IMG/VR virus record: IMGVR_UViG_3300002835_000063
Span: 32,001 to 96,000 of that record
DNA: 64,000 bases
Strand: one strand, 5' to 3'
DNA from: a virus
The translations under genes and the position numbers were made by a program. The notes beneath the pieces were generated by a model. That model had not been told where the DNA came from. It saw only the letters and a program-made list of their open reading frames with translations, and searched no databases. Positions 6,759 through 32,012 of the stretch are shown in pieces; within the stretch, counting starts at the first letter, position 1; each line of letters starts with the position of its first letter.

Positions 6759-9804
<3,046 letters not shown>

Positions 9805-14345: not shown

Positions 14346-16568
14346 ATGGCAGTCAGAATTCAGTTTAGGCGCGGAACAGCCGCAGAGTGGGTAGCCGCCA
14401 ATCCGACGCTGGCAGTAGGAGAGCTTGGTCACGAGACCGATACCGGCCAGTTTAAGATCGGTAACGGATCAGCCGACTGGGCAAACCTTGTCTACTCTTC
14501 TGTGAGTGAATCATATGTCGATAATGCTATTGCAAATATAATTGACCTTGCTCCAGCAACTCTTGACACTCTAAATGAGCTAGCAGCAGCACTCGGGGAC
14601 GACCCAGACTTTTTTAATACCGTTGCCAACAATCTAACCGCCCACATCTCAGACACAAGCGTTCACGGGATAGAAAATACTTTAGAACTTGCAACTAGTA
14701 CTGATGTAGCAAACATTTTGGGACAACACTCAGGATCAACAGTTAACGTTCATGGAATTGCAAATACTGCTGAACTAGTACTAAATTCACAACTAGCAGA
14801 CTACACCACTACCGCCAATTTAGTCAATACTTATGCTACTATTGCATCTCTAGCAGACTATGCAACCACAGCAAACGCAGTTTTAACCACTCCAAGTATC
14901 AATGACGCTACTATCAATAATGTTTCTGTAGTTGGAACTGTTACTCTGCCAGATACCACTTCTATTGGAGGTGTTAGTGCTACTGAAATATCATATTTAA
15001 ACAATGTAAGTTCTAGTATTCAAAATCAGCTAAACGATAAAGCACCAACTGACAATGCAATTTTCACTGGAAATATTTCTCTGCCAGCGACAACATCTAT
15101 TGGAGATGTAAGCGCCACCGAAATTGGATATCTAGACAACGTAAGTTCAAATATTCAGGTTCAGTTGGATGCTAAGGCCCCAACAGCTAATGCTAGCTTC
15201 ACCGGATCTATTGCCTTGCCAGCTACTACATCTATTGGAGACATTAGCTCTGCTGAAATTGGATATCTAGATAACGTAAGTTCCAATATTCAAGCTCAGT
15301 TGGATGCCAAGCTTTCCACTTCTTCAGCTGCTAGCATTTACGCCCCACTATCTGACCCAACATTTATTAGCACTGTTACCCTGCCAGCTAATACTACGAT
15401 TGGTTTAGTTACCGGTACAGAAATCGGATATTTAGATAACGTAACTTCTAATATTCAGACTCAGCTGGATGCAAAGGCCCCGACAGCCAACCCCACCTTT
15501 ACAGGCACCGTTTCTGGTATTACAGCAACAATGGTTGGACTTGGAAGCGTTGACAATACCGCTGATTTAGACAAGCCAATTTCTAACGCAACTCAGAGTG
15601 CTCTTGATGCCAAGCTAAGCCTAAGCGGCGGAACAATGACTGGCAAGATTACTCTTGACGGAGATCCATCACAGGCACTGCACGCTGCTACTAAGCAGTA
15701 TGTAGACAATCTTGCAGCCGGTCTCCACATCCACGAGGCCGCTCACGCAGCGACTACCGACACACTGGCAAACTTAATAGCTTCAACTGTTACATATGAC
15801 AATGGAACTGATGGAGTTGGAGCTACCCTAAGCTTGGGAGCAAACCTAACTACACTTGATGGCCACACACTAAACAATGGTGACAGAATTTTGGTTAAGA
15901 ACCAAGCAAACGCTGCTCACAACGGTATTTATGTTCGCACTTCGGCCACCCTACTAACCAGAGCTGATGACTTCAACAGCGCCGCCGAGATTGCTGGTGG
16001 AGATCTAGTATTCGTAGAAAATGGAACTCTCTACAACAGCACTGCCTGGGTAGTCGAGAACGAAGTAAGTACTGTAGGAACTGATGACATTCTTTGGGCT
16101 CAGTTCTCTGGAGCTGGAACGGTTACTGCTGGAACCAATATTCAGGTAGACGGTCTTCAAGTTTCGGTAATTTCTAACCCAACTTTTGCAAACGTTGTAA
16201 CGGCAAGCAGCGGTGTTGCTTTCTCAGATGGAACTCAGACCAAACAGGGTGTCCCCTCAATAACGGTAATTAGCCCTAAGAGTGGTTCCTACACCTTAGC
16301 AAGCTTAGACGAGCGCGACACAATCATTGAGATCAGCAATACAAGTGCTACCACACTCACTATTCCACTTGATTCGACCCTAAACTTCCCGGTTGGAACC
16401 ACATTGGACATCATCCAAACCAACACCGGGCAAGTGACCATAGCTGGCGAGGGTGGAGTAACCGTAAACGCCACCCCAGGCCTAAAACTAAGGGCCCGCT
16501 GGTCATCTGCTACACTATTAAAGCGAGCAGCAAACACTTGGCTGGTATACGGCGACCTGAGCGCTTAA
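14346..16568 (+). CDS. tail-fibre-like protein with an Mtd-N-like N-terminus
   Basis: RIQFRRGTAAEW; APATLDTLNELAAALGDD; four LP.TTSIG..S..EI.YL.NV.S.IQ.QL repeats; shares the GDRILVKNQ domain with 12321..14063; ends WLVYGDL. Confidence 0.82.
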   Translation: MAVRIQFRRGTAAEWVAANPTLAVGELGHETDTGQFKIGNGSADWANLVYSSVSESYVDNAIANIIDLAPATLDTLNELAAALGDDPDFFNTVANNLTAHISDTSVHGIENTLELATSTDVANILGQHSGSTVNVHGIANTAELVLNSQLADYTTTANLVNTYATIASLADYATTANAVLTTPSINDATINNVSVVGTVTLPDTTSIGGVSATEISYLNNVSSSIQNQLNDKAPTDNAIFTGNISLPATTSIGDVSATEIGYLDNVSSNIQVQLDAKAPTANASFTGSIALPATTSIGDISSAEIGYLDNVSSNIQAQLDAKLSTSSAASIYAPLSDPTFISTVTLPANTTIGLVTGTEIGYLDNVTSNIQTQLDAKAPTANPTFTGTVSGITATMVGLGSVDNTADLDKPISNATQSALDAKLSLSGGTMTGKITLDGDPSQALHAATKQYVDNLAAGLHIHEAAHAATTDTLANLIASTVTYDNGTDGVGATLSLGANLTTLDGHTLNNGDRILVKNQANAAHNGIYVRTSATLLTRADDFNSAAEIAGGDLVFVENGTLYNSTAWVVENEVSTVGTDDILWAQFSGAGTVTAGTNIQVDGLQVSVISNPTFANVVTASSGVAFSDGTQTKQGVPSITVISPKSGSYTLASLDERDTIIEISNTSATTLTIPLDSTLNFPVGTTLDIIQTNTGQVTIAGEGGVTVNATPGLKLRARWSSATLLKRAANTWLVYGDLSA

Positions 16569-16583
16569 TTAGGAGAGAATTAA

Positions 16584-17960
16584 ATGAGCAAGAGAGCTGG
16601 AAGAAAGTCTCAGGCTTCTAATGACTTTTTAGAGCCAAAAGCCCCGATTAACGTATCTGCTACGGACGTTGGAACTGCCCGTGCCTACAATGATGGCGCT
16701 GCTAGCGTTTCTTTCGAGTTACCAGGAGACTCGCCAGCCGCTACTTCTTATGAAGTTAAAGCATATAAAAATGGAACCACTCTCGACACTACCGCAACTG
16801 GAACAACGGGGGCAAGCTCTCCTATCACAGTTGGCGGGCTAGATTCTGCCACTGGATATACTTTTACAGTATCTGCAACTAACGCTGCTGGCACATCGGC
16901 AGATTCAGCCGCATCTGCTTCTGTAACCATTACAACCGTCCCACAGGCTCCGCAAAGCCCATCAGCCACTTCTACAACTGCTAATCAAGACATCATCTCT
17001 TGGTCAAACGGTGCTAATGGTGGGAAAGCCATAACTAGCACATATTTTGTGTCAAGTGACCAGACCACAAATCCAGGCAACGTAACCATGACCACCAACC
17101 CATGGACTGAGCCAGAAAACGGTGGTTCAACGCAGAACTATACTCTGTATCACGTAAACGATAATGGAACCTCAGCAGGCGCTTCTACCGCTAACGTAAC
17201 TACGATTGCACCATTCTTCCCACCATTCTTCCCACCGTTCTTCCCATTCTTCCCGCCTTTCTTCCCGTTCTTCCCACCGTTCTTCCCACCGTTCTTCCCA
17301 CCATTCTTCCCACCATTCTTCCCGTTCTTCCCACCTTTCTTCCCACCGTTCTTCCCGCCATTCTTCCCACCATTCTTCCCACCGTTCTTCCCACCGATGT
17401 TCCCATTCTTCCCACCGTTCTTCCCACCGTTCTTCCCACCGATGTTCCCATTCTTCCCACCGTTCTTCCCACCTAGATTCCTATGTATTGAAGAAAACAC
17501 AATGATCTTGACACCTAGAGGAGAGATCGCGGCTAAGGATCTTCGAGCAGGAGATACGGTATTGTCAATAGCAATTAATGAGATTGGCAATAACTCTGTT
17601 ACCCCAATTGAATTCACTGTTGGTGCAACTTTGACGAGCACATCGCAGCTAGTCGAGACAAAGATTGTTGGAATTCTAGAGACCGTAAAGACCGGAATAA
17701 CTTACTTCAACGGTAGGTCAGAGGCCAGATATTCTAGCCAGCAGCCACTGTTTGTTAAGTCTGATGGAGAATTCCAGGTAAAGATTGTTTCTAACATTAA
17801 GCTTGGAGATGCTCTCCTGCTGATTAATCCAGATGGAACATACACCGAAGAAGAGGTAACCGAAATTACTCTAGTTTCGGAGCCGGCCAATGTATTCCAA
17901 TTCTCCTGCGAGCCATATCACTGGTTTATAGCTGGTGGCTACTTGGCCCACAATAAGTAA
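16584..17960 (+). CDS. FN3 domains + (PPFF)n tract + C-terminal Hint (intein-like) domain protein
   Basis: FN3 motif VGGLDSATGYTFTVSATNAAGTS; 88-residue P/F tract; CIEENTMILTPRG...DLRAGDTVLS ... HWFIAGGYLAHNK-stop. Confidence 0.85.
   Translation: MSKRAGRKSQASNDFLEPKAPINVSATDVGTARAYNDGAASVSFELPGDSPAATSYEVKAYKNGTTLDTTATGTTGASSPITVGGLDSATGYTFTVSATNAAGTSADSAASASVTITTVPQAPQSPSATSTTANQDIISWSNGANGGKAITSTYFVSSDQTTNPGNVTMTTNPWTEPENGGSTQNYTLYHVNDNGTSAGASTANVTTIAPFFPPFFPPFFPFFPPFFPFFPPFFPPFFPPFFPPFFPFFPPFFPPFFPPFFPPFFPPFFPPMFPFFPPFFPPFFPPMFPFFPPFFPPRFLCIEENTMILTPRGEIAAKDLRAGDTVLSIAINEIGNNSVTPIEFTVGATLTSTSQLVETKIVGILETVKTGITYFNGRSEARYSSQQPLFVKSDGEFQVKIVSNIKLGDALLLINPDGTYTEEEVTEITLVSEPANVFQFSCEPYHWFIAGGYLAHNK
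17211..17474 (+). repeat. coding tandem repeat (PPFF/PFF/PPMF) x23 + PP
   Basis: 12-nt and 9-nt units CCN-(CCN)-TTC-TTC; Pro codons vary (CCA/CCG/CCT). Confidence 0.98.
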
Positions 17961-17978: not shown

Positions 17979-18017
17979 ACCCCCCTTATGATTAGTAAGG
18001 GGGGGTGTTTATTTTTT
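17979..18017 (+). terminator. intrinsic terminator ending fibre operon A
   Basis: ACCCCCCTTA-tgattag-TAAGGGGGGGT followed by GTTTATTTTTT. Confidence 0.75.
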
Positions 18018-18066: not shown

Positions 18067-18801
18067 ATGAATACTTGGTTCACAAAAGACAGATCAGAGA
18101 CTGACTCTAATCGAATGCCCCCAAGACCACTGGGCCAAAAAATACAAGTATTAAACCCTGCCTTAGGGATAAATGTATATCGTGGCGCAATAACAAAAGA
18201 AGAGGGCAGGGCTTGCGTAGACATTTTAGAGTCAACCTTAAATGGCCAAACTCAATACAAATGGAGTGATGCTCAAGTTACAAATTCTTCAAAGGCTAAC
18301 CTAGAAGCAAGAAATGCCAAAGATTTTAAATTTAATTCGACTGGCCTAGGGCCAAAAAATGAAGAAAATGAAAAATTATATGAAATGCACGAAAAAATTT
18401 TTAGGGCAGTAAAAGCATGTGTAGATGATTATGGTTATTACTGGGGCGTTGGGATAATGTCATATGAGGCTTTTAACTTTGTTAAGTATGAAGGAGCCGG
18501 GACCCACTTTAAAATTCACGCAGATCATGGCCCAACATATGTAACTACGGTGTCTATTGTCGTGTATCTCAACGATGATTATGAGGGGGGAGAACTTTGG
18601 TTTCCCCGATTTGATTTAACCCTAAAACCACAAGCTGGAGATATAGCAGTTTTTCCGTCAACATACATCTACGAACACGCTTCGCAGGACATGATTAGTG
18701 GGACTAAGTATTCTGTTGTCATTATGAGCGACTATAATGACAGAGATAATGTAAACCAAAGAGTGCCTCAAACCATTCAAAATTATCAACTTAAGTACTA
18801 G
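18067..18801 (+). CDS. P4H-like 2OG-Fe(II) oxygenase #1
   Basis: HAD...YLNDDYEGGEL.F...YEHAS...KYS; TATAAT at 18030-18035. Confidence 0.9.
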   Translation: MNTWFTKDRSETDSNRMPPRPLGQKIQVLNPALGINVYRGAITKEEGRACVDILESTLNGQTQYKWSDAQVTNSSKANLEARNAKDFKFNSTGLGPKNEENEKLYEMHEKIFRAVKACVDDYGYYWGVGIMSYEAFNFVKYEGAGTHFKIHADHGPTYVTTVSIVVYLNDDYEGGELWFPRFDLTLKPQAGDIAVFPSTYIYEHASQDMISGTKYSVVIMSDYNDRDNVNQRVPQTIQNYQLKY

Positions 18802-18812
18802 AAAGAGCCAAA

Positions 18813-19583
18813 GTGTCAGAACAGATCAACAAAACCGAAGAAGAAGTACGCCTAGAGGCAGAACAAAAAAGTAAAGAAGAGCAAAAAAATATACACGAGC
18901 GGCTAGTAAATTGGTACAAAATTGACGAGGTGACTTGGAGTTCAGCAGAAGAAATTGTTCCTGGCAGCGGCATTTGGGTATACCATGATGTTTTGCCCGC
19001 CGAGATGAATATAATTTCTCGGTTAGAAGAAGTTTTAGATAATCCAGAAAATAACTATCAGTACCAAGAAGCAATGGTCGGATATGCAATGAAAATCCCG
19101 GAGTACCGAGACTGCGTAGATTTTAAATACAAAGAGAATGACTTTGACAATGATCAGTCAGAGTGGGGTGACAAGCTTCGACAGTTGGCAAAAGATACAA
19201 AGTATAGACAGCTACAGGTAGTAAAAGATTACACAAGAAGATATAACATCGGCGAACTTCGTTACTGGGAAGCAACCAACTATGTTCGCTATGGAGTTGG
19301 CCAACACTTCCAGGAACATCACGATCACGGGTACTCCTACAACTGTGTAGTTTCTTTGGTTGCGTACCCAAATGACGACTACGAAGGCGGTGAGCTTTAT
19401 TTCAGATTACAAAACATAACTGCTAAAGCCCGCGCTGGCGATGTTTTTATTTTTCCCTCTAATTTTATGTACCCACACAGGGCAATGCCAGTTAAGTCTG
19501 GAGTTAAATACTCTATGGTTACTATGCTTGATTACTCAGAAAAACTACACAATCCAGAATTTTTTAAGGAGCTAGAGAACTAG
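18813..19583 (+). CDS. P4H-like 2OG-Fe(II) oxygenase #2
   Basis: HHD...YPNDDYEGGEL...YPHRA...KYS. Confidence 0.9.
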   Translation: MSEQINKTEEEVRLEAEQKSKEEQKNIHERLVNWYKIDEVTWSSAEEIVPGSGIWVYHDVLPAEMNIISRLEEVLDNPENNYQYQEAMVGYAMKIPEYRDCVDFKYKENDFDNDQSEWGDKLRQLAKDTKYRQLQVVKDYTRRYNIGELRYWEATNYVRYGVGQHFQEHHDHGYSYNCVVSLVAYPNDDYEGGELYFRLQNITAKARAGDVFIFPSNFMYPHRAMPVKSGVKYSMVTMLDYSEKLHNPEFFKELEN

Positions 19584-20329
19584 TGTCAATAGTTTCGATA
19601 CAAAAGCTTTTTAAAGAGGGAGACGTTGCAAATATTGAGCAACTTCCAGCCCGTAGAGACTGGATGGATCAAACTCAGGACAAACATGCCTACATGTGTT
19701 TTCCCTTAAATCTAACAAACAGGCTTGGTTGGTCAATATCTTTTCCGGAGGATATTTCTTTTATTTGGGACGGAGTAACAGATACTTCTCCAGATCATGT
19801 AAAAATTTTAAAAGGAGAAAAATTTGTTCACCCAACTAGGGGAAATGCAACAATTAGTTTTTTAACTGGTTTAAAGTTCACAACAGACCAAAATACTTCT
19901 ATATTGGCAATGCCAGTACCCAACTTGTTTATCAGGGGGGCGCAGTGCTACACAACTCTGATGAGCACCTCTTTTTATATACACATGCTTCCACTGGCCT
20001 GGAGAATTACTGAACCAAACATAGAAATAGAAATACCAGCCGGAACCCCCGTAGCTTCAATTTTGCCAATCTCTTTAACAAATCTAGAGAACGACTACGA
20101 ACTTCAAATTACCGAGGACCTGCCAGACGGATCCTACTGGGAAGAAGTTAGAAAGTATGGCGATGCAACCATAATTAAAAATGGCGCGGGCGACTGGTCA
20201 AAAATGTATAGAGATGCCCTAGACTATAACGGAAATTCTGTTGGCTCTCATGAAACTAAATCAATAAAATTAAAAACTGTAGTATGCCCGGCTACAGGAA
20301 AAAACTATGAAATAGAGGAAACTATTTAA
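19583..20329 (+). CDS. DUF6065-like protein
   Basis: RDWMD.T...HAY.CFPL..TN.LGW.I..P.D; GTPVA.I.P. Confidence 0.7.
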   Translation: MSIVSIQKLFKEGDVANIEQLPARRDWMDQTQDKHAYMCFPLNLTNRLGWSISFPEDISFIWDGVTDTSPDHVKILKGEKFVHPTRGNATISFLTGLKFTTDQNTSILAMPVPNLFIRGAQCYTTLMSTSFYIHMLPLAWRITEPNIEIEIPAGTPVASILPISLTNLENDYELQITEDLPDGSYWEEVRKYGDATIIKNGAGDWSKMYRDALDYNGNSVGSHETKSIKLKTVVCPATGKNYEIEETI

Positions 20330-21069
20330 TGGAAACTAAAAAAATTAAGTTTGTAGTAAATAGACCTTGGTTAAGTAAAGAAAGTAGTTCTCTGCCAAAA
20401 CCAACAATAAAAACTATTCCAGATTGGTACAGAGAGGGGGATCGATATGCAAAACATCCAGTAACTGGAGAGTACTGGAAAGATCCGCAGAATGGCGGAA
20501 AAATTCCAACTTGGAAAGCTTGCCCATCGGTATATGACATCATGGGCTCTGGCTATGTTTACAGGACTCCCTGCGACATTGAATTTAAAGAAAATATTTA
20601 CGGACAAATAGAAGCCAAAGTTTTAGACGAAAAAAATAAAGACTTTTTGCAACTTAGAACGCCCATGCCAGGATTTAAAGCTCCAATGGGATACCACGAT
20701 GTTCATTTTGCGTGGTGGGCTGATTGGGCGGTCGAATTGCCCGAGGGGTATAGTGCACTTTACTCCCAGCCGTTTAATAGATTTGAACTGCCGTTTATTA
20801 CAACTAGTGGAATTATTGATAACGACAAAGTCCATTTGCCGGGGACAATGCCATTTTTTGTTGTAAAAGGATTCCAAGGAGTTCTACCAGCAGGAACTCC
20901 GTATGCTCAGATCTTGCCATTTTTAAGAGAGCACTGGGAATCTGAAATTGTAGATTCCATAGGTTACGAAAAAATGGTACAAAAAAATATGGACAACAGC
21001 CAAAAATACAGGGTCCCAGACGGCGGGGTTTACCAAAAAGATGTCTGGGAACGAAGAAAATACGAATAA
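20329..21069 (+). CDS. DUF6065-like protein (second type)
   Basis: IPDWYR...TWKACP...GY...P.D; PEGYS.LY.QPFNR..LPF....GIID.D; GTPYAQILPF. Confidence 0.65.
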   Translation: METKKIKFVVNRPWLSKESSSLPKPTIKTIPDWYREGDRYAKHPVTGEYWKDPQNGGKIPTWKACPSVYDIMGSGYVYRTPCDIEFKENIYGQIEAKVLDEKNKDFLQLRTPMPGFKAPMGYHDVHFAWWADWAVELPEGYSALYSQPFNRFELPFITTSGIIDNDKVHLPGTMPFFVVKGFQGVLPAGTPYAQILPFLREHWESEIVDSIGYEKMVQKNMDNSQKYRVPDGGVYQKDVWERRKYE

Positions 21070-21083
21070 GATAAACTAGACCC

Positions 21084-21767
21084 ATGAGAAACGACTACAC
21101 AAATAACAACATTACTCCATATATGTCAATAACCCCTTCAGGATTTTTTGGCGATTCTGCAGAAAATATTGTTGCTATTGACGACTTTATGACCGAAGAA
21201 GAATTAACCTATCTAAACAATTTTGCTAGGAAAAATACCATGTGGGACGCAACCGAGACTCACTATAACGAAGATGGTACAGTGATTTATGACTCTTCTT
21301 ACTGGGATCATCGAGTTGCAACGGCTCCCATATTAAAAGAAGCTGATATAAAAGTAGTTGAACTAATATCTGATATGCAAGATAGATTAAAGAAAAAAGT
21401 TGATACTTTTTTCGCAGTGGATGCTCATCCCACAAGCCCGGCGCTAGTTAGGTGGCTACCCGGACAAAGACAGCAACCGCACGCAGATAAAGAACTACAT
21501 GAGGGCGAGGGCAGGGGGAAGCCAAATGACTTCCCATACTATGACATAGCTGGCCTTTTTTATATAAACGATGACTATGAGGGAGGAGAGCTATATTTCC
21601 CTAACCAAGGTATTCAATTTAAACCAAAAGCCGGATCAGCTTACTTTTTTCCAGGAGACATGAATTATATCCACGGAGTCACAGAAATCAAGTCTGGAAT
21701 TAGATATGTTTGCCCATTTTTCTGGACAATAAAAGAGCACACTGGCAACCACAAACCAAATTTATAG
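21084..21767 (+). CDS. P4H-like 2OG-Fe(II) oxygenase #3
   Basis: HAD...YINDDYEGGEL...YIHGV...RY; TAAACT lies 6 nt before the ATG. Confidence 0.9.
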   Translation: MRNDYTNNNITPYMSITPSGFFGDSAENIVAIDDFMTEEELTYLNNFARKNTMWDATETHYNEDGTVIYDSSYWDHRVATAPILKEADIKVVELISDMQDRLKKKVDTFFAVDAHPTSPALVRWLPGQRQQPHADKELHEGEGRGKPNDFPYYDIAGLFYINDDYEGGELYFPNQGIQFKPKAGSAYFFPGDMNYIHGVTEIKSGIRYVCPFFWTIKEHTGNHKPNL

Positions 21768-21798
21768 TAGAATTATCATCAACAAGCAAGGATCTAAA

Positions 21799-22578
21799 AT
21801 GCATTTAGCCCAGAAACTACACGAAGAAGTTTATCTATACGAGGATGTAATTAGTGATCCCAAAAAACTTATTGATTTAATTGAAGAATTAGATGAAGAC
21901 GAAACTGTCCAAAGCGTAATTCCAGAATGGGGCTTTTGGTTTTCAAACAGCCGTGACGGTCACAGTTTCGGCAGTAAAAAAGATTTTAATCCAGAAGCCT
22001 TAGATCAACTAGACTCATCTAGAAAAGAAGATGTTGAGTTTATAGTAAAAGAAATTCAGAGTGGTGTAAAAAATGTTGCAGAATCCTACTACAAAGATAG
22101 AGGACTAGAGGGTCAACCACAAATATCTCCGTTTGTTGGAATTATGAAGTACCGCCCAGGCTGCGAAATGGGCGCACACTTTGACGCTCAGGCCGGAGAT
22201 AGAAGTTTAAAGTATTCGATTGTGATGTATTTAAATGACGACTATGAGGGCGGAGAGATCTCCTTTATTATTAGACCATATGATTTAAGAAACCCAAAAA
22301 ATTTCCACCTTCAACCATCAACCGATGCTGACGACCCCAAAAATAAAGATCTCACAGACTTTACGCTAAAACCAAAAGCTGGATCAGCATTAATTTTTCC
22401 CTCTACTCATCCGTATAAGCACCAAGTTCACATAATTAAGGGTGGAGATAAGTATATTTTCCCTGGTTTTGTTTTTCAAGATGATTTTGATCCAAATGAT
22501 CCAGCTTCTAGAGAAAAATACAATGCCGGATCTCTATACGAAAAGCCAACCGAAGACGTTTATTTCGACGAAGACTAA
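21799..22578 (+). CDS. P4H-like 2OG-Fe(II) oxygenase #4
   Basis: HFD...YLNDDYEGGEI...YKHQV...KY. Confidence 0.9.
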   Translation: MHLAQKLHEEVYLYEDVISDPKKLIDLIEELDEDETVQSVIPEWGFWFSNSRDGHSFGSKKDFNPEALDQLDSSRKEDVEFIVKEIQSGVKNVAESYYKDRGLEGQPQISPFVGIMKYRPGCEMGAHFDAQAGDRSLKYSIVMYLNDDYEGGEISFIIRPYDLRNPKNFHLQPSTDADDPKNKDLTDFTLKPKAGSALIFPSTHPYKHQVHIIKGGDKYIFPGFVFQDDFDPNDPASREKYNAGSLYEKPTEDVYFDED

Positions 22579-22582
22579 TAAA

Positions 22583-23197
22583 ATGTATGAGGCCATTTCG
22601 CCAAAAGTTCTATACTTTAAAAATTTTTATAAAGACACAGAAAAGTTTTTAGAGGCTATAGAAAGCTCCCCACCCTGGGAACCATGGAATTCTCGGGGTG
22701 GCCAAAATATTTTTACTTACGGAGTATTAAAAACATTTCATACCCAAGAATACAAACAAATAGCAGATATTAATCAAAAAAATTCTAGTAAATTTATTAT
22801 TAATGCCATGAAAAAAATAAATTTAGTCTGCGGATCAGAGTATTTAAAACATTTTCAATGCTCGGACAATGAATTAAGTAGATTAAAAAAGTCCATTTTA
22901 ACGGATAAAATAATTATTGGCGTAAAAAAATATTTTGAGGGGGGGACCACCCTAGGCCCACACCCAGACGCGGACCTACAATCATCAAAAGATGAAATAA
23001 GCATAACTTTTTATCCAAACGATAATTATGAGGGCGGAGAATTAAATTTTCCCGATTTGGGGCTAACAATTAAACCAGAGGCCGGAAGTGTGGTCATATA
23101 CCCATCAAAATATTTACATGAATCTTTCCCCGTTCCCACGGGAGAAAAGTTGGTGTCTAATCACGTATACATTGGACTGGAAAAAATATGGAAATAA
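22583..23197 (+). CDS. P4H-like 2OG-Fe(II) oxygenase #5
   Basis: HPD...YPNDNYEGGEL...YLHES...K; start corrected to ATG 22583 (MYEAISPK). Confidence 0.85.
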   Translation: MYEAISPKVLYFKNFYKDTEKFLEAIESSPPWEPWNSRGGQNIFTYGVLKTFHTQEYKQIADINQKNSSKFIINAMKKINLVCGSEYLKHFQCSDNELSRLKKSILTDKIIIGVKKYFEGGTTLGPHPDADLQSSKDEISITFYPNDNYEGGELNFPDLGLTIKPEAGSVVIYPSKYLHESFPVPTGEKLVSNHVYIGLEKIWK

Positions 23198-23844
23198 AAT
23201 ATGAAATACCTTACGAGAATATTGTTTATTTTCCAGAAATTGTTCCGGACGTAGATAACATAATTTCTTCAATAGAGTCCACAAATAGTCTAGCTATAAC
23301 TAAATGGGAAATTTGGAATGCTTATGGAGAATCAGACGGGGATCCATATGGCGAAGTAAAATACATGAGCAAACATCTTTTAGATGCAGAGACTAACCAA
23401 AAAACTGTAGAAACCTCAAAATATATAATTTCTACGCTAATAAGTTCAATGTCATTAGCAGCCGAAACTTACGCAAAAATATATAACATTGATTCTAACC
23501 TTTTGCAGTATGCAATTGATGCATTAAATATGCCTGGCACAAAATATGGAATAAACAAATATTTTGAGAATCAATACATGGGACCACACGTTGACTGGAA
23601 TGAGTACAACTCCGACATTACTTATACCATTGTTGTTTACTTGAACGATGATTACGAAGGCGGGGAGCTATTTTTTGTGGATCCGGACATAAACATAAAA
23701 ATAAAACCTAAAAAGGGAAGCATAGTAATGTTTCCATCTGTCCTGCCATATCTGCATCAATCCTGTGAGATTACTAAGGGAAGAAAAATGCTGATAACTC
23801 ATCACTGGAAAAATGATTCACTATCAAGAAACAGGACTTACTAA
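23188..23844 (+). CDS. P4H-like 2OG-Fe(II) oxygenase #6
   Basis: HVD...YLNDDYEGGEL...YLHQS...RK. Confidence 0.9.
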   Translation: MEIKYEIPYENIVYFPEIVPDVDNIISSIESTNSLAITKWEIWNAYGESDGDPYGEVKYMSKHLLDAETNQKTVETSKYIISTLISSMSLAAETYAKIYNIDSNLLQYAIDALNMPGTKYGINKYFENQYMGPHVDWNEYNSDITYTIVVYLNDDYEGGELFFVDPDINIKIKPKKGSIVMFPSVLPYLHQSCEITKGRKMLITHHWKNDSLSRNRTY

Positions 23845-24698
23845 TGTCAATTAATGTAAATCTTATTGAAGTTTTTTCTAAAGAAGATCTCTATTCTAGA
23901 CTAAACGAAATTTTAGATGTTCAAACTAAAAATTCCATTGTTGGGATTAGAGGAGTTAGGCTTACTGAAGAAGAGCAGCTACAGCTAGCCAGAGATCTCG
24001 GAGACATAGCTGGCTGGTTCCCAAACAACACCGACAAATTTAATCACAAATATATTGAAAATCACTCTGCCAACCCATCGGTGGGAGCCTCTTCAAATAA
24101 CGAATTAATTTTAAGCTGGCACCTAGAGCGCGTCGATTATGACGAATATCTTTTGTTGGTGGCTGGCGTTTGGAACATGAGACTTTTTAATTGTGATCCA
24201 GAATCGGGTAAAACATATTTTATAGATTCCAGAAAAGTGTTCCAAAAAATTTACAATGAAGATGAAAAGAATTTTTTGCGAGGCTGCAAAGCCTACTGGA
24301 CAGAACAAACGCCAAGCGGCAATACACGCACTAATTATGTAAAGATTGTTCAGCCCCATTGGAAGACCGAAGAAGAACAAATTAGAGTTGAGCTACACCA
24401 TATGGCTGCAATTAAATTGTACAAAATAAACGATAATGACCCAACTTCAGAAGAAGCGGCCGCCTTTGAGTCATTAATGAAAAGATTTTCTCAAGAAATA
24501 GCAAACAACGAAGATTTAAGAATAATTCACAAATGGAAAGAGGGAGACATCCTCATTCCAGATCTTTTCTCTCTAGCGCACGCCGTCACGGGCGGATTTG
24601 ACCCCAAAGACAGAGAGTTTACCGGATACTGGTGCTATACGGCGTCTCCCTCTAGTGTTGGAGAAGACAATGTCCCGCCATCTTGGAGGGGTGAATAA
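23844..24698 (+). CDS. TauD/TfdA/CAS-like 2OG-Fe(II) dioxygenase
   Basis: WHLE, G.TYFID, HKWKEGDILIPD....H...R pattern. Confidence 0.75.
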   Translation: MSINVNLIEVFSKEDLYSRLNEILDVQTKNSIVGIRGVRLTEEEQLQLARDLGDIAGWFPNNTDKFNHKYIENHSANPSVGASSNNELILSWHLERVDYDEYLLLVAGVWNMRLFNCDPESGKTYFIDSRKVFQKIYNEDEKNFLRGCKAYWTEQTPSGNTRTNYVKIVQPHWKTEEEQIRVELHHMAAIKLYKINDNDPTSEEAAAFESLMKRFSQEIANNEDLRIIHKWKEGDILIPDLFSLAHAVTGGFDPKDREFTGYWCYTASPSSVGEDNVPPSWRGE

Positions 24699-24700
24699 GC

Positions 24701-25171
24701 TTGAACGATTTAAATCCAACAAATGAAGTATATGTAAATCAATACAAAGAAGCTGTAAAACAAAATAAAGCAAATTCTTATATGCTCACTATTGCCAGAG
24801 ACGGCGAATCACCAGTCAGGTCAATTTATTTTTATGATAATGCAGTAGACGCCACTATTGGATATGAAGCATACCAAGACTGGGGATTTGCTAAAGACTA
24901 TCTAACGGTGGAGCTATATGAGCCAACTGGAAGGGTTCACAGCAAAGTTTTGCGCAGGCCTCGCGGTGGAGAGTGCACTTTTGAGCGGGCACAGTACTAC
25001 CAAATTTCTGACATAATAAACGCCGTTAAGCCAAAAGTAGACGAGGAAGCATTCAACTACCTAGCCTACGAGTTTGCTAAGCTATTCTCGAAGGACAACC
25101 AAAGGTTTAATCCAGAGCGATTTTTAGAGACGCTGGGATATACAGGAGAAATAAATGACAGATCTGTCTAA
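24701..25171 (+). CDS. hypothetical protein within the oxygenase array
   Basis: 156-aa ORF, tightly packed; C-terminal F..DN.RFNPERF motif. Confidence 0.6.
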   Translation: MNDLNPTNEVYVNQYKEAVKQNKANSYMLTIARDGESPVRSIYFYDNAVDATIGYEAYQDWGFAKDYLTVELYEPTGRVHSKVLRRPRGGECTFERAQYYQISDIINAVKPKVDEEAFNYLAYEFAKLFSKDNQRFNPERFLETLGYTGEINDRSV

Positions 25172-25889
25172 GATCGAGACTACCCCGACAGAGTTTGGCG
25201 ATAAGGGATTTATCAAAGAAGATATTGTTTTTTACAATAATTTTCTAACCCAAGAAGAGTGTGAGACCCTGGTTAGAGTATTCGAGGACGAAGAGCAACC
25301 CTGGAGCATGTCAGCTTTTTTTGAGTCGTACGGCATGAGTATTATGCCAGAAGACCCGATTTTAGAGCGATACGGGTTACCTAGAGATTACTTTGGGAAA
25401 CTAGCAGATAGGCTACATAAGGTAGTAGAAGATGCCCACGAGCGTCCAGTAAAATCAGTTTCGTCTCATGCCCAGAAGTGGCAAATAGGGGCGTTTGCTC
25501 CATTTCATTCAGACAACACCGACATGGATGGAAACCCGTCTGCCTGGGAGAAAAGCAAACTTGTCTGCCTCTTGTACATAAATGACGACTATGAGGGCGG
25601 AGAGCTAGACTTTAGGGATCACGATATCTCGATCAAACCGGTGGCGGGCCAGTTAATTACTTTCCCCGGCGGATTTAATAACATCCACCAAGTGTTGCCA
25701 GTGAGGGGCTCTACGAGACATACCATTGGAGCTTTCTGGGATTATGCCGAATCGGTCTACTCCGAAGAGCGCATGAAGCAATGGGAAGATGAAATCCAAA
25801 AGGTCCGAGAAGAGCAAAAAGTCATGCAGGACGAGTGGAAAGAAATGGTTGCCAAGGGGGTCCACCCCACGGATCCGGGCGCTCAATAG
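25155..25889 (+). CDS. P4H-like 2OG-Fe(II) oxygenase #7
   Basis: HSD...YINDDYEGGEL...NIHQV...RH; coiled-coil C-terminus. Confidence 0.9.
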   Translation: MTDLSKIETTPTEFGDKGFIKEDIVFYNNFLTQEECETLVRVFEDEEQPWSMSAFFESYGMSIMPEDPILERYGLPRDYFGKLADRLHKVVEDAHERPVKSVSSHAQKWQIGAFAPFHSDNTDMDGNPSAWEKSKLVCLLYINDDYEGGELDFRDHDISIKPVAGQLITFPGGFNNIHQVLPVRGSTRHTIGAFWDYAESVYSEERMKQWEDEIQKVREEQKVMQDEWKEMVAKGVHPTDPGAQ

Positions 25890-31632: not shown

Positions 31633-32012
31633 CTAGCTGCTCGTTTTTTTCGAAGAGGCTTTTTAATTGGTTCGATAACTGGATCTTGAATTGGTTTATA
31701 GACAACGCTTGCCGGGGCGCCCTGAGCACTGTGTAGGCCCATTGTAAGATCTTTAATTAGTTCAATTTCAGTAGAAACTTTTACAACGTGCTTTTCAATG
31801 TTGTTTACTCGATCGGCTAGCGAGCTCCCACCGTTTTCCCATAGCTGATGCTCGACACGATCTAATCTATCTGATATAGTTCTGCCCTGAGCATCAGCCC
31901 CCAAAACATCGCCAATTTTTTTGGCGGTTCTATATATCCCTATAACTGCTGCAACTAAGACAGCAAACGCACTTATTGCAGCCGACACGGCCATTATTAG
32001 TTCAGCAGTCAT
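31629..32012 (-). CDS. membrane-anchored protein (actinophage lysis-cassette-type)
   Basis: N-terminal TM helix; RLDRVEHQL..NGGSSLADRV motif. Confidence 0.6.
   Translation of the reverse strand: MTAELIMAVSAAISAFAVLVAAVIGIYRTAKKIGDVLGADAQGRTISDRLDRVEHQLWENGGSSLADRVNNIEKHVVKVSTEIELIKDLTMGLHSAQGAPASVVYKPIQDPVIEPIKKPLRKKRAAS

Follow-up and report, generated by a model that had tools for sequence, protein, structure and literature searches.

The protein studied here is encoded at 16584..17960 of a 64,000-nucleotide stretch of viral DNA (IMG/VR virus record IMGVR_UViG_3300002835_000063, positions 32,001 to 96,000), and this whole stretch is called the window below. Its C-terminal 158 residues, Cys301 and the 157 residues that follow, are a genuine Hint (intein-like) domain. 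Hint domains are known as inteins, as Hedgehog processing domains and as bacterial intein-like (BIL) domains. The host protein is a fibre-module protein of an uncultivated tailed phage and carries Hint as its C-terminal module. The domain starts directly after a tract of Pro and Phe repeats, (PPFF/PFF)n, that ends in Pro-Pro-Arg-Phe-Leu, and a single Lys makes up the whole C-extein. The domain is of the BIL kind and probably active. We consider it reasonably likely that the protein cuts itself intramolecularly between Leu300 and Cys301, which would free the FN3-(PPFF)n portion and discard the Hint domain after it has capped the hydrophobic tail. An earlier note made from the DNA letters had pointed to this gene, and the coordinates and residues it gave for the gene and the Hint region are exact.

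The fold is settled by profile and structure comparisons. Searched on its own, the domain scores below the gathering thresholds of the Pfam models PT-HINT (E 1.4e-4), Intein_splicing (2.4e-4) and Hint_2 (9.4e-4), the PT-HINT (PF07591) score being 22.5 bits against a curated threshold of 27.7. A single-sequence search of solved structures gives the BIL domain 2lwy as best match, at a weak 6.2e-4. The same structure is the best match in the PDB for a profile of 86 relatives, now at E 2.9e-11, and several inteins follow at 4e-9 to 1e-5, among them the MJ0781 KlbA intein at 4.3e-9. The earlier note had proposed a structure prediction as a check of the Hint fold. AlphaFold2, run on the alignment of the 86 relatives, returned a predicted local distance difference test score (pLDDT) of 94.6 and a predicted template modelling score of 0.88; the run from the single sequence gave an unusable model with a pLDDT of 37. 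VIA-align superposes the former model on Hedgehog Hog, on Cth BIL and Tetrahymena BIL2, and on the Mtu RecA, Ssp DnaB and Npu DnaB inteins with Z 16.9-17.6 and a root mean square deviation (rmsd) of about 2 Å over 130-139 residues; for Hog, the two BIL domains and the RecA intein the rmsd is 1.9-2.2 Å over 130-136 residues. Foldseek assigns a probability of 1.0 to the inteins, BIL and Hog domains compared, with the PhoCDC21-1 intein best by E-value. The observation of a Hint domain at Cys301 far exceeds chance expectation.

The motifs at both ends of the domain are as the earlier note had read them, with Cys right after the Pro/Phe tract and His-Asn before one Lys and the stop codon. Its reading of block B as S-S-Q-Q-P also holds. 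Because HMMER pairs these residues with T-F-D-H-P of 2lwy and T-H-D-H-P of the KlbA intein 2jmz, and because one relative (L004) has S-D-Q-H-P at the same site, S-S-Q-Q-P is a correctly placed block B in which His is replaced by Gln. Ser at position 7 of the block is a conservative replacement, and Gln stands at position 10. Block F position 13 looks like His in a by-eye comparison with the intein 'DHNF' motif, made outside any tool alignment. Motifs were counted in 66 full domains, taken from the search matches and two viral loci and then aligned. Cys1 is found in 72/72 relatives that cover the N-terminus of the domain, directly in 68 and further upstream in 4 owing to an insertion. Block B position 7 is Ser in 58 of the 66 domains and Thr in 7, and position 10 is Gln in 40, His in 19 and Glu in 7. 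Block F position 4 is Asp in 18, Gln in 12 and Glu in 11, and 48/66 domains have a His-Asn terminus. In addition, G23, D24, N76, G108 and D109 are near-invariant. Asn76 is present in 65/66 domains and forms the sole invariant column of the 86-row alignment A1 (N88 of its first sequence). It sits eight residues ahead of block B, within an F-N-G motif that, to our knowledge, is not recognised among the canonical intein blocks, and it might join in an altered active site.

The earlier note spoke of a loss of the block B His, and the counts above show that the change is not private to this protein. Because Gln is the majority state of the family and Cys1 is invariant, the block B Gln looks like a clade character under selection, that is, a variant active site and not a sign of decay. 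Block B position 10 also tends to pair with block F position 4, His going with Asp or Glu, Gln with Gln and Glu with Arg. Since the pairs cluster on the tree, the pairing is only suggestive of a maintained contact. In inteins, the His at block B position 10 has been called the most conserved residue in a review that knows just two inteins lacking it: a pseudogene, and Tko CDC21-1, in which a Lys comes to the rescue (PMC4031507). Large side chains at -1 can compensate in the N-S acyl shift of an engineered Ssp DnaB intein that carries the His73Ala change (PMC6333167). We rejected a bulky -1 residue as a family-wide substitute for the missing His, as members with His and members with Gln or Glu share a similar mix of small and bulky residues there.

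HMMER, run exhaustively over 1.84 billion cluster representatives (50% identity clusters), matched 232 of them at E <= 1e-3, of which 62 reach <= 1e-10 and 6 reach <= 1e-30. The family comprises at least 232 clusters, mostly phage, and is largely invisible to Pfam. It is effectively unannotated because the Hint-type models of Pfam detect only a minority of its members: at E <= 1e-3, Intein_splicing finds 33/86 relatives and PT-HINT 5/86, and Hint (PF01079) finds one of the 86, at 6.3e-4, and does not find the window protein. In a protein-language-model atlas, the clusters among which the domain falls are viral wherever taxa are recorded, and most are named 'hypothetical protein'. BFVD holds relatives from uncultured Caudovirales under automatic names, one of them 'PASTA_pknB domain containing protein', and the database names of ten members that were looked up are all absent or 'hypothetical'. 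A word-based homologue search with the Hint region gave no matches, and PHROGs had no family covering the Hint part. With tblastn against GenBank phages, the window protein matched only Phage NCTB, and P0081 and P0008 matched nothing; megablast of the gene neighbourhood found no near relative. A literature search found no paper that describes or analyses this family or its cultured-phage relatives. What is already known is that GenBank annotators have labelled C-terminal Hint domains in phage tail proteins, those of Phage NCTB (L001, 4960-6480 and 6480-6941) being named 'putative phage tail protein, contains intein domain'. Relatives in Dickeya phage vB_DsoM_AD1 (gp108; L023, 3017-4456) and in Erwinia jumbo phages (H2-H16) are annotated 'virion structural protein'. 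Collagen repeats are present in the NCTB, AD1 and Erwinia proteins, whose C-terminal Hint domain has the canonical T-x-x-H in block B and is followed by a Lys-rich C-extein 7-10 residues long. The AD1 protein ends in H-N then T-D-I-V-A-K-A-E-K-K, so that its +1 residue is Thr, and the NCTB protein in H-N then A-V-M-V-A-K-K.

Members of the family share a plan in which a variable N-terminus leads into an aromatic/Pro-rich tract, and the tract into a Cys1-Hint domain at the extreme C-terminus. In nearly all full-length relatives, the low-complexity tract stops 0-10 residues before Cys1. Its repeat unit varies and reads PPFF, PYFPWF, PFGFT, FGFSP or FFAPPG. Aromatic residues and Pro make up a mean of 54-66% of the 40 residues before Cys1 against 15% of the N-terminal remainder. 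A single reading frame through FN3, tract and Hint is kept across divergent relatives with different repeat units. At the N-terminus, Pfam detects FN3 in 23/86 relatives and PASTA in 14/86 (best PASTA E 1.7e-11), and no domain was detectable in the N-terminal part of members of 600-970 residues. PASTA domains bind peptidoglycan-related ligands, and their presence in place of FN3 hints at cell-wall contact.

The C-termini fall into two types that differ in where Lys is found. In type 1 members, His-Asn is followed either by Lys and stop or by a tail, 2-19 residues long, that has Lys in one of its first three positions (+1, +2 or +3); many of these tails are short and aromatic, like the tract. 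Lys lies within +1..+3 in 45/45 His-Asn-ended members with enough upstream sequence, and just 3 of these 45 carry Lys among the ten residues before Cys1. The single Lys at +1 of the window protein, which the earlier note had seen, is not incidental. Type 2 members stop at Ile-Ser or Ile-Ala, with neither His-Asn nor tail, and all 16 have one or two Lys within -10..-1 of Cys1, placed at -1 in 8. Type 2 is a single clade (Shimodaira-Hasegawa-like approximate likelihood ratio test, SH-aLRT, 99), within which Lys is retained along long branches. Many independent events of covariation between Lys and the terminus were considered and rejected, as the 16 members without His-Asn form this one clade and amount to one switch. 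A type 2 gene in the related locus L007 (15017..16324) occupies the slot of the window gene, after an Mtd_N fibre gene and before a P4H-like gene. Since the type 2 clade fills the same syntenic slot, this gene argues that cutting at the N-terminal junction would be the shared, essential event.

Because Cys1 is invariant, His-Asn is mostly retained, type 2 has kept Cys1 and the domain is strictly terminal, the family appears to keep a functional reaction centre, the N-terminal junction being where its essential step would take place. In the mechanism that we propose, Cys301 would attack the carbonyl of Leu300 in an N-to-S acyl shift, turning the peptide bond between tract and Hint into a thioester. 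The thioester would be resolved in cis, with either water or the amine of the neighbouring Lys458 as the attacking group, and cyclisation of Asn457 could release Lys458 from the domain. The net result would be FN3-(PPFF)n freed from a discarded 17-kDa Hint cap, with either a free carboxylate or a one-Lys cap at its C-terminus. Until assembly, the Hint cap would hold the very hydrophobic tract soluble or inert. In the Hint fold, as established for inteins, both termini meet at the active site, and our AlphaFold2 model aligns with intein precursors from residue -1 to +1. Therefore, Lys458 could reach the Cys1 thioester. If type 1 members transferred their mini C-extein, then in both types the freed Pro/Phe tail would have a short peptide with a Lys at its end, which would explain the Lys rule economically. 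What the analysis establishes is the fold, the motifs, the family architecture, the Lys rule and the genomic position; all the chemical steps and the chaperone role of the cap are our inference.

Canonical intein splicing needs Cys, Ser or Thr at +1. The earlier note had concluded that splicing is impossible here, and for the canonical reaction this stands, as +1 is Lys. As a blanket claim it is too strong, since A-type BILs are reported in some instances to use an alternative splicing route despite having no nucleophile in their C-terminal flank (PMC5874633) and Tetrahymena BIL2 is reported to conjugate its N-terminal flank to lysines by an isopeptide bond, without ATP (PMC8616854). BIL domains are also reported to cleave themselves at either end (PMC7765530). 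The functions that the earlier note had offered, namely release or activation of the C-terminus of the tract, or a removable cap, remain the leading candidate readings. A bolder possibility, which we hold tentatively and think rather doubtful, is that the clade is a Lys-directed ligase on its own cargo, in which the neighbouring Lys captures the Cys1 thioester. The product would be a Pro/Phe tail with an isopeptide- or peptide-linked Lys, or with a C-terminal lactam; in another version, a Lys of a partner virion protein would receive the tail. If true, either would be a new enzyme-free modification or cross-linking of phage fibre proteins, with Gln replacing the block B His.

The likeness to known Hint systems is closest for A-type BILs. 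Cth BIL (2lwy; PT-HINT PF07591) has the same Hint fold (Z 17.1) and is both the best profile match and the closest solved relative. The phage domain shares with A-type BILs the Cys1 and a terminal His-Asn followed by a non-nucleophilic residue, the BILs being described as conserving His-Asn ahead of a flank in which a nucleophile is often missing (PMC7765530, PMC5874633), and it too is housed in variable surface or structural proteins, not in conserved enzymes. It differs in lying at the extreme C-terminus with a one-residue C-extein, in being phage-borne and in falling below the PT-HINT threshold, and its family differs in having mostly Gln for the block B His, an obligatory Lys beside the junction and an aromatic/Pro tract always ahead. 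BIL2 of the Tetrahymena thermophila BUBL1 locus (6y75/6tmm) superposes with Z 17.6 and an rmsd of 2.1 Å over 136 residues. However, BIL2 lies between two ubiquitin-like domains and keeps its block B His (H69), whereas the phage domain is flanked by the Pro/Phe tract and a single Lys. Transfer to Lys is what is reported for BIL2 (PMC8616854). Hedgehog Hog (1at0; Z 16.9) is a C-terminal Hint like the phage domain and removes itself from its N-terminal cargo via a Cys thioester. Unlike Hog, the phage domain has no sterol-recognition region, reads Leu-Cys-Ile at the junction (Gly-Cys-Phe in Hog), gives no PF01079 match and ends in His-Asn. The CDC21-1 inteins include the best Foldseek E-value (PhoCDC21-1) and an intein, Tko CDC21-1, that is active with a compensating Lys58 for the block B His (PMC4031507), but they are true inteins in a conserved replication protein and have a +1 nucleophile. 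Set against class 1 inteins in general, the window protein has their terminal His-Asn, and it has the fold and the first-residue Cys of the Hint superfamily, but it has neither the block B T-x-x-H nor Cys, Ser or Thr at +1, and it is not an insertion in a conserved host with two functional exteins. Two functional analogues lie outside the Hint superfamily. Peptidase_S74 is the self-removing C-terminal intramolecular chaperone of phage tailspikes and fibres, and Nup98 combines Phe-rich FG repeats with a C-terminal autoproteolytic domain. Both differ from the phage protein in fold and chemistry, and Pfam scans revealed no homology to it.

Several points weigh against self-cleavage. Gln stands in the window protein for both usual acid/base residues, those of block B position 10 and of position 4 in block F, and the first of these is the site where inteins keep the residue that a review ranks as their most conserved (PMC4031507). 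In part, the Lys rule reflects one evolutionary event, given the monophyly of the clade without His-Asn, and it is broken by three near-identical loci (L016-L018, about 7001-8260) that end in L-V-H-Y-N-D-Y-S-P-S-E-I-P-D and have no Lys on either side of Hint. Conservation of Cys1 could in principle have a non-catalytic role, and the chaperone role suggested for the cap draws on analogy. In a rival reading, the domain performs no chemistry and stays on the protein as a structural, binding or oligomerisation knob, with Cys1 and His-Asn kept for structure. The two Gln, the sub-threshold scores of the Pfam Hint-type models and the annotation of cultured-phage relatives as virion structural proteins would all fit a permanent knob, which we nevertheless consider unlikely: Cys1 is invariant over deep clades, His-Asn is retained and the Lys rule holds, and the clade that shed His-Asn and tail kept Cys1, which is the pattern of a reaction centre and not of a scaffold. 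It is highly improbable that the domain is what is left of a decaying intein or BIL, or that the repeat has produced an artefact of annotation. The weak scores to curated families and the empty word-based search could be taken that way, but the 232 cluster representatives, 62 of them at <= 1e-10, the very confident AlphaFold2 model and a frame of FN3, tract and Hint that stays constant in many divergent relatives with different repeat units speak otherwise. As far as sequence data allow, the homologue count, the model and its superposition refute decay and artefact alike.

A different outcome of the same first step would be intermolecular ligation, in which the Cys301 thioester is passed to an outside nucleophile and the Pro/Phe tail becomes covalently anchored, in the way that cholesterol is attached to Hedgehog and target lysines to Tetrahymena ubl4. 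The acceptor could be a small molecule, a lipid amine or a Lys in another virion protein such as the upstream fibre protein. Tetrahymena BIL2, a reported isopeptide former (PMC8616854), is one of the best structural matches (Z 17.6), Hog matches at Z 16.9, and at most related viral loci with a recovered upstream flank the gene comes directly after a fibre gene whose C-terminal domain is conserved. These features agree with anchoring to a partner, but the analysis identified no partner that has a conserved acceptor, Hint ends in His-Asn-Lys and is followed by neither a sterol-recognition region nor another adaptor, and the conserved Lys in cis favours an intramolecular reaction. We therefore regard transfer to another molecule as quite unlikely and prefer cleavage in cis at Leu300/Cys301.

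For Hint chemistry, what is new is a large phage-borne clade that is always C-terminal and follows an aromatic/Pro tail, with Gln at block B and Lys at the junction. Should the domain prove active, it would show that the block B His is dispensable for routine N-S acyl shifts, and the family may offer small tags that are C-terminal by nature and either cleave themselves off or ligate to Lys. On the side of phage biology, the family points to post-translational maturation of fibre-associated proteins with Phe-rich tails that resemble nucleoporin FG repeats. Since cultured Dickeya and Erwinia jumbo phages hold relatives, the question of processing is tractable in the laboratory.

The window is part of a record of 108,880 bp with an estimated completeness of about 65%. 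Its gene content includes a tape-measure gene, tail and fibre genes, and genes for DNA polymerase I, a helicase, a PrimPol-D5 protein and ribonucleotide reductase. The features of the Hint gene and its borders are listed in the table. The same gene architecture is found at the related loci L003, L004, L007 and L009-L022, and 'PPRF' closes the tract in several relatives too. The terminator-like hairpin pattern suggests that the gene closes its transcription unit. Two long open reading frames (ORFs) overlap the tract, at 17150..17641 (-) with GGKN repeats and at 17206..17505 (+, other frame) with HHSS repeats, and both were rejected as genes because they are by-products of the 12-nt repeat.

Table. 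Features of the Hint gene and its borders, in window coordinates
Feature	Position	Strand	Basis
Fibre gene directly upstream, with Mtd_N start	14346-16568		Mtd_N E 3.4e-15; equivalents in L003, L004, L007, L009-L021
Whole gene (458 aa), running from a conserved N-terminal motif through FN3 region, Pro/Phe tract and Hint domain to Lys and stop	16584..17960	+	ORF list
FN3 domain, residues 34-111	16683..16916	+	Pfam fn3 E 1.7e-7, 31.8 bits (cut-off 25)
Second FN3-like region, weakly supported	16917..17210	+	Pfam fn3 E 0.11, sub-threshold; conserved in relatives by tblastn
(PPFF/PFF)n tract, ~90 residues, encoded by a 12-nt (and 9-nt) tandem repeat	17209..17473	+	Tandem Repeats Finder: period 12, 23.3 copies
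Junction peptide P-P-R-F-L, with Leu300 at -1 of the bond predicted to be cut	17469..17483	+	Sequence
Hint (BIL-like) domain, Cys301 to Asn457	17484..17954	+	Profile against PDB, AlphaFold2 model, structure superposition
Cys1 codon TGT (Cys301), predicted nucleophile of the N-to-S acyl shift	17484..17486	+	Sequence, conservation in relatives
Asn76 of the domain (Asn376 of the protein)	17709..17711	+	Invariant alignment column
Block B, S-S-Q-Q-P for T-x-x-H-P	17733..17747	+	HMMER alignments to 2lwy and 2jmz
Block F position 4, Gln139 of the domain, for Asp	17898..17900	+	Aligned to Asp of 2jmz
Block G, CAC-AAT-AAG-TAA: His456-Asn457-Lys458-stop	17949..17960	+	Sequence
Terminator-like hairpin (17980-18004) and T-rich tail	17980..18014	+	Consensus scan: 10-pair stem, 6 G-C pairs; pattern match only

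Gene contexts of relatives were read from IMG/VR loci. The upstream fibre gene has a conserved C-terminal region, of which about 125-170 residues align at 50-70% identity. A fibre gene with such a C-terminus directly precedes the tract-Hint gene in most viral loci with a recovered upstream flank, and its product may be a docking partner of the FN3-tract-Hint protein. Directly downstream of the Hint gene (window 18067-25889) lies a cluster of genes for P4H-type 2OG-Fe(II) oxygenases (PF13640) and DUF6065 proteins. Such a cluster also adjoins the Hint gene in L003, L004, L005, L007, L021 and L022. It is not within 7 kb of the Hint gene in L009, L012-L014 and L020, and we therefore rejected the idea that an adjacent oxygenase always belongs to the system. 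Each of the five family-bearing records tested has 1-10 such oxygenases somewhere, a figure that has no matched control and is not counted as linkage. The prolines of the tract or of collagen-like proteins are candidate oxygenase substrates.

Two paralogous tract-Hint genes with different N-terminal parts occur within one phage genome at L007 (7001-9808 and 15017-16324). Two such paralogues are likewise present on the contig IMGVR_UViG_3300032268_000887, to which both L014 and L019 belong. A separate, secreted-looking family has a signal-peptide-like start that ends in R-G-G-G-G, 3-5 tandem Hint domains, a Gly-rich region and a conserved C-terminal domain. Its members include P0022, P0024, P0028, P0031, P0053, P0064, P0067, P0069, P0099, P0108, P0118 and P0129. 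The junctions between the tandem domains read ...V-H-N-K-G(1-5)-C..., with Lys at +1 in every one. As these proteins also carry His-Asn-Lys, Lys at +1 is a feature of the wider Hint clade.

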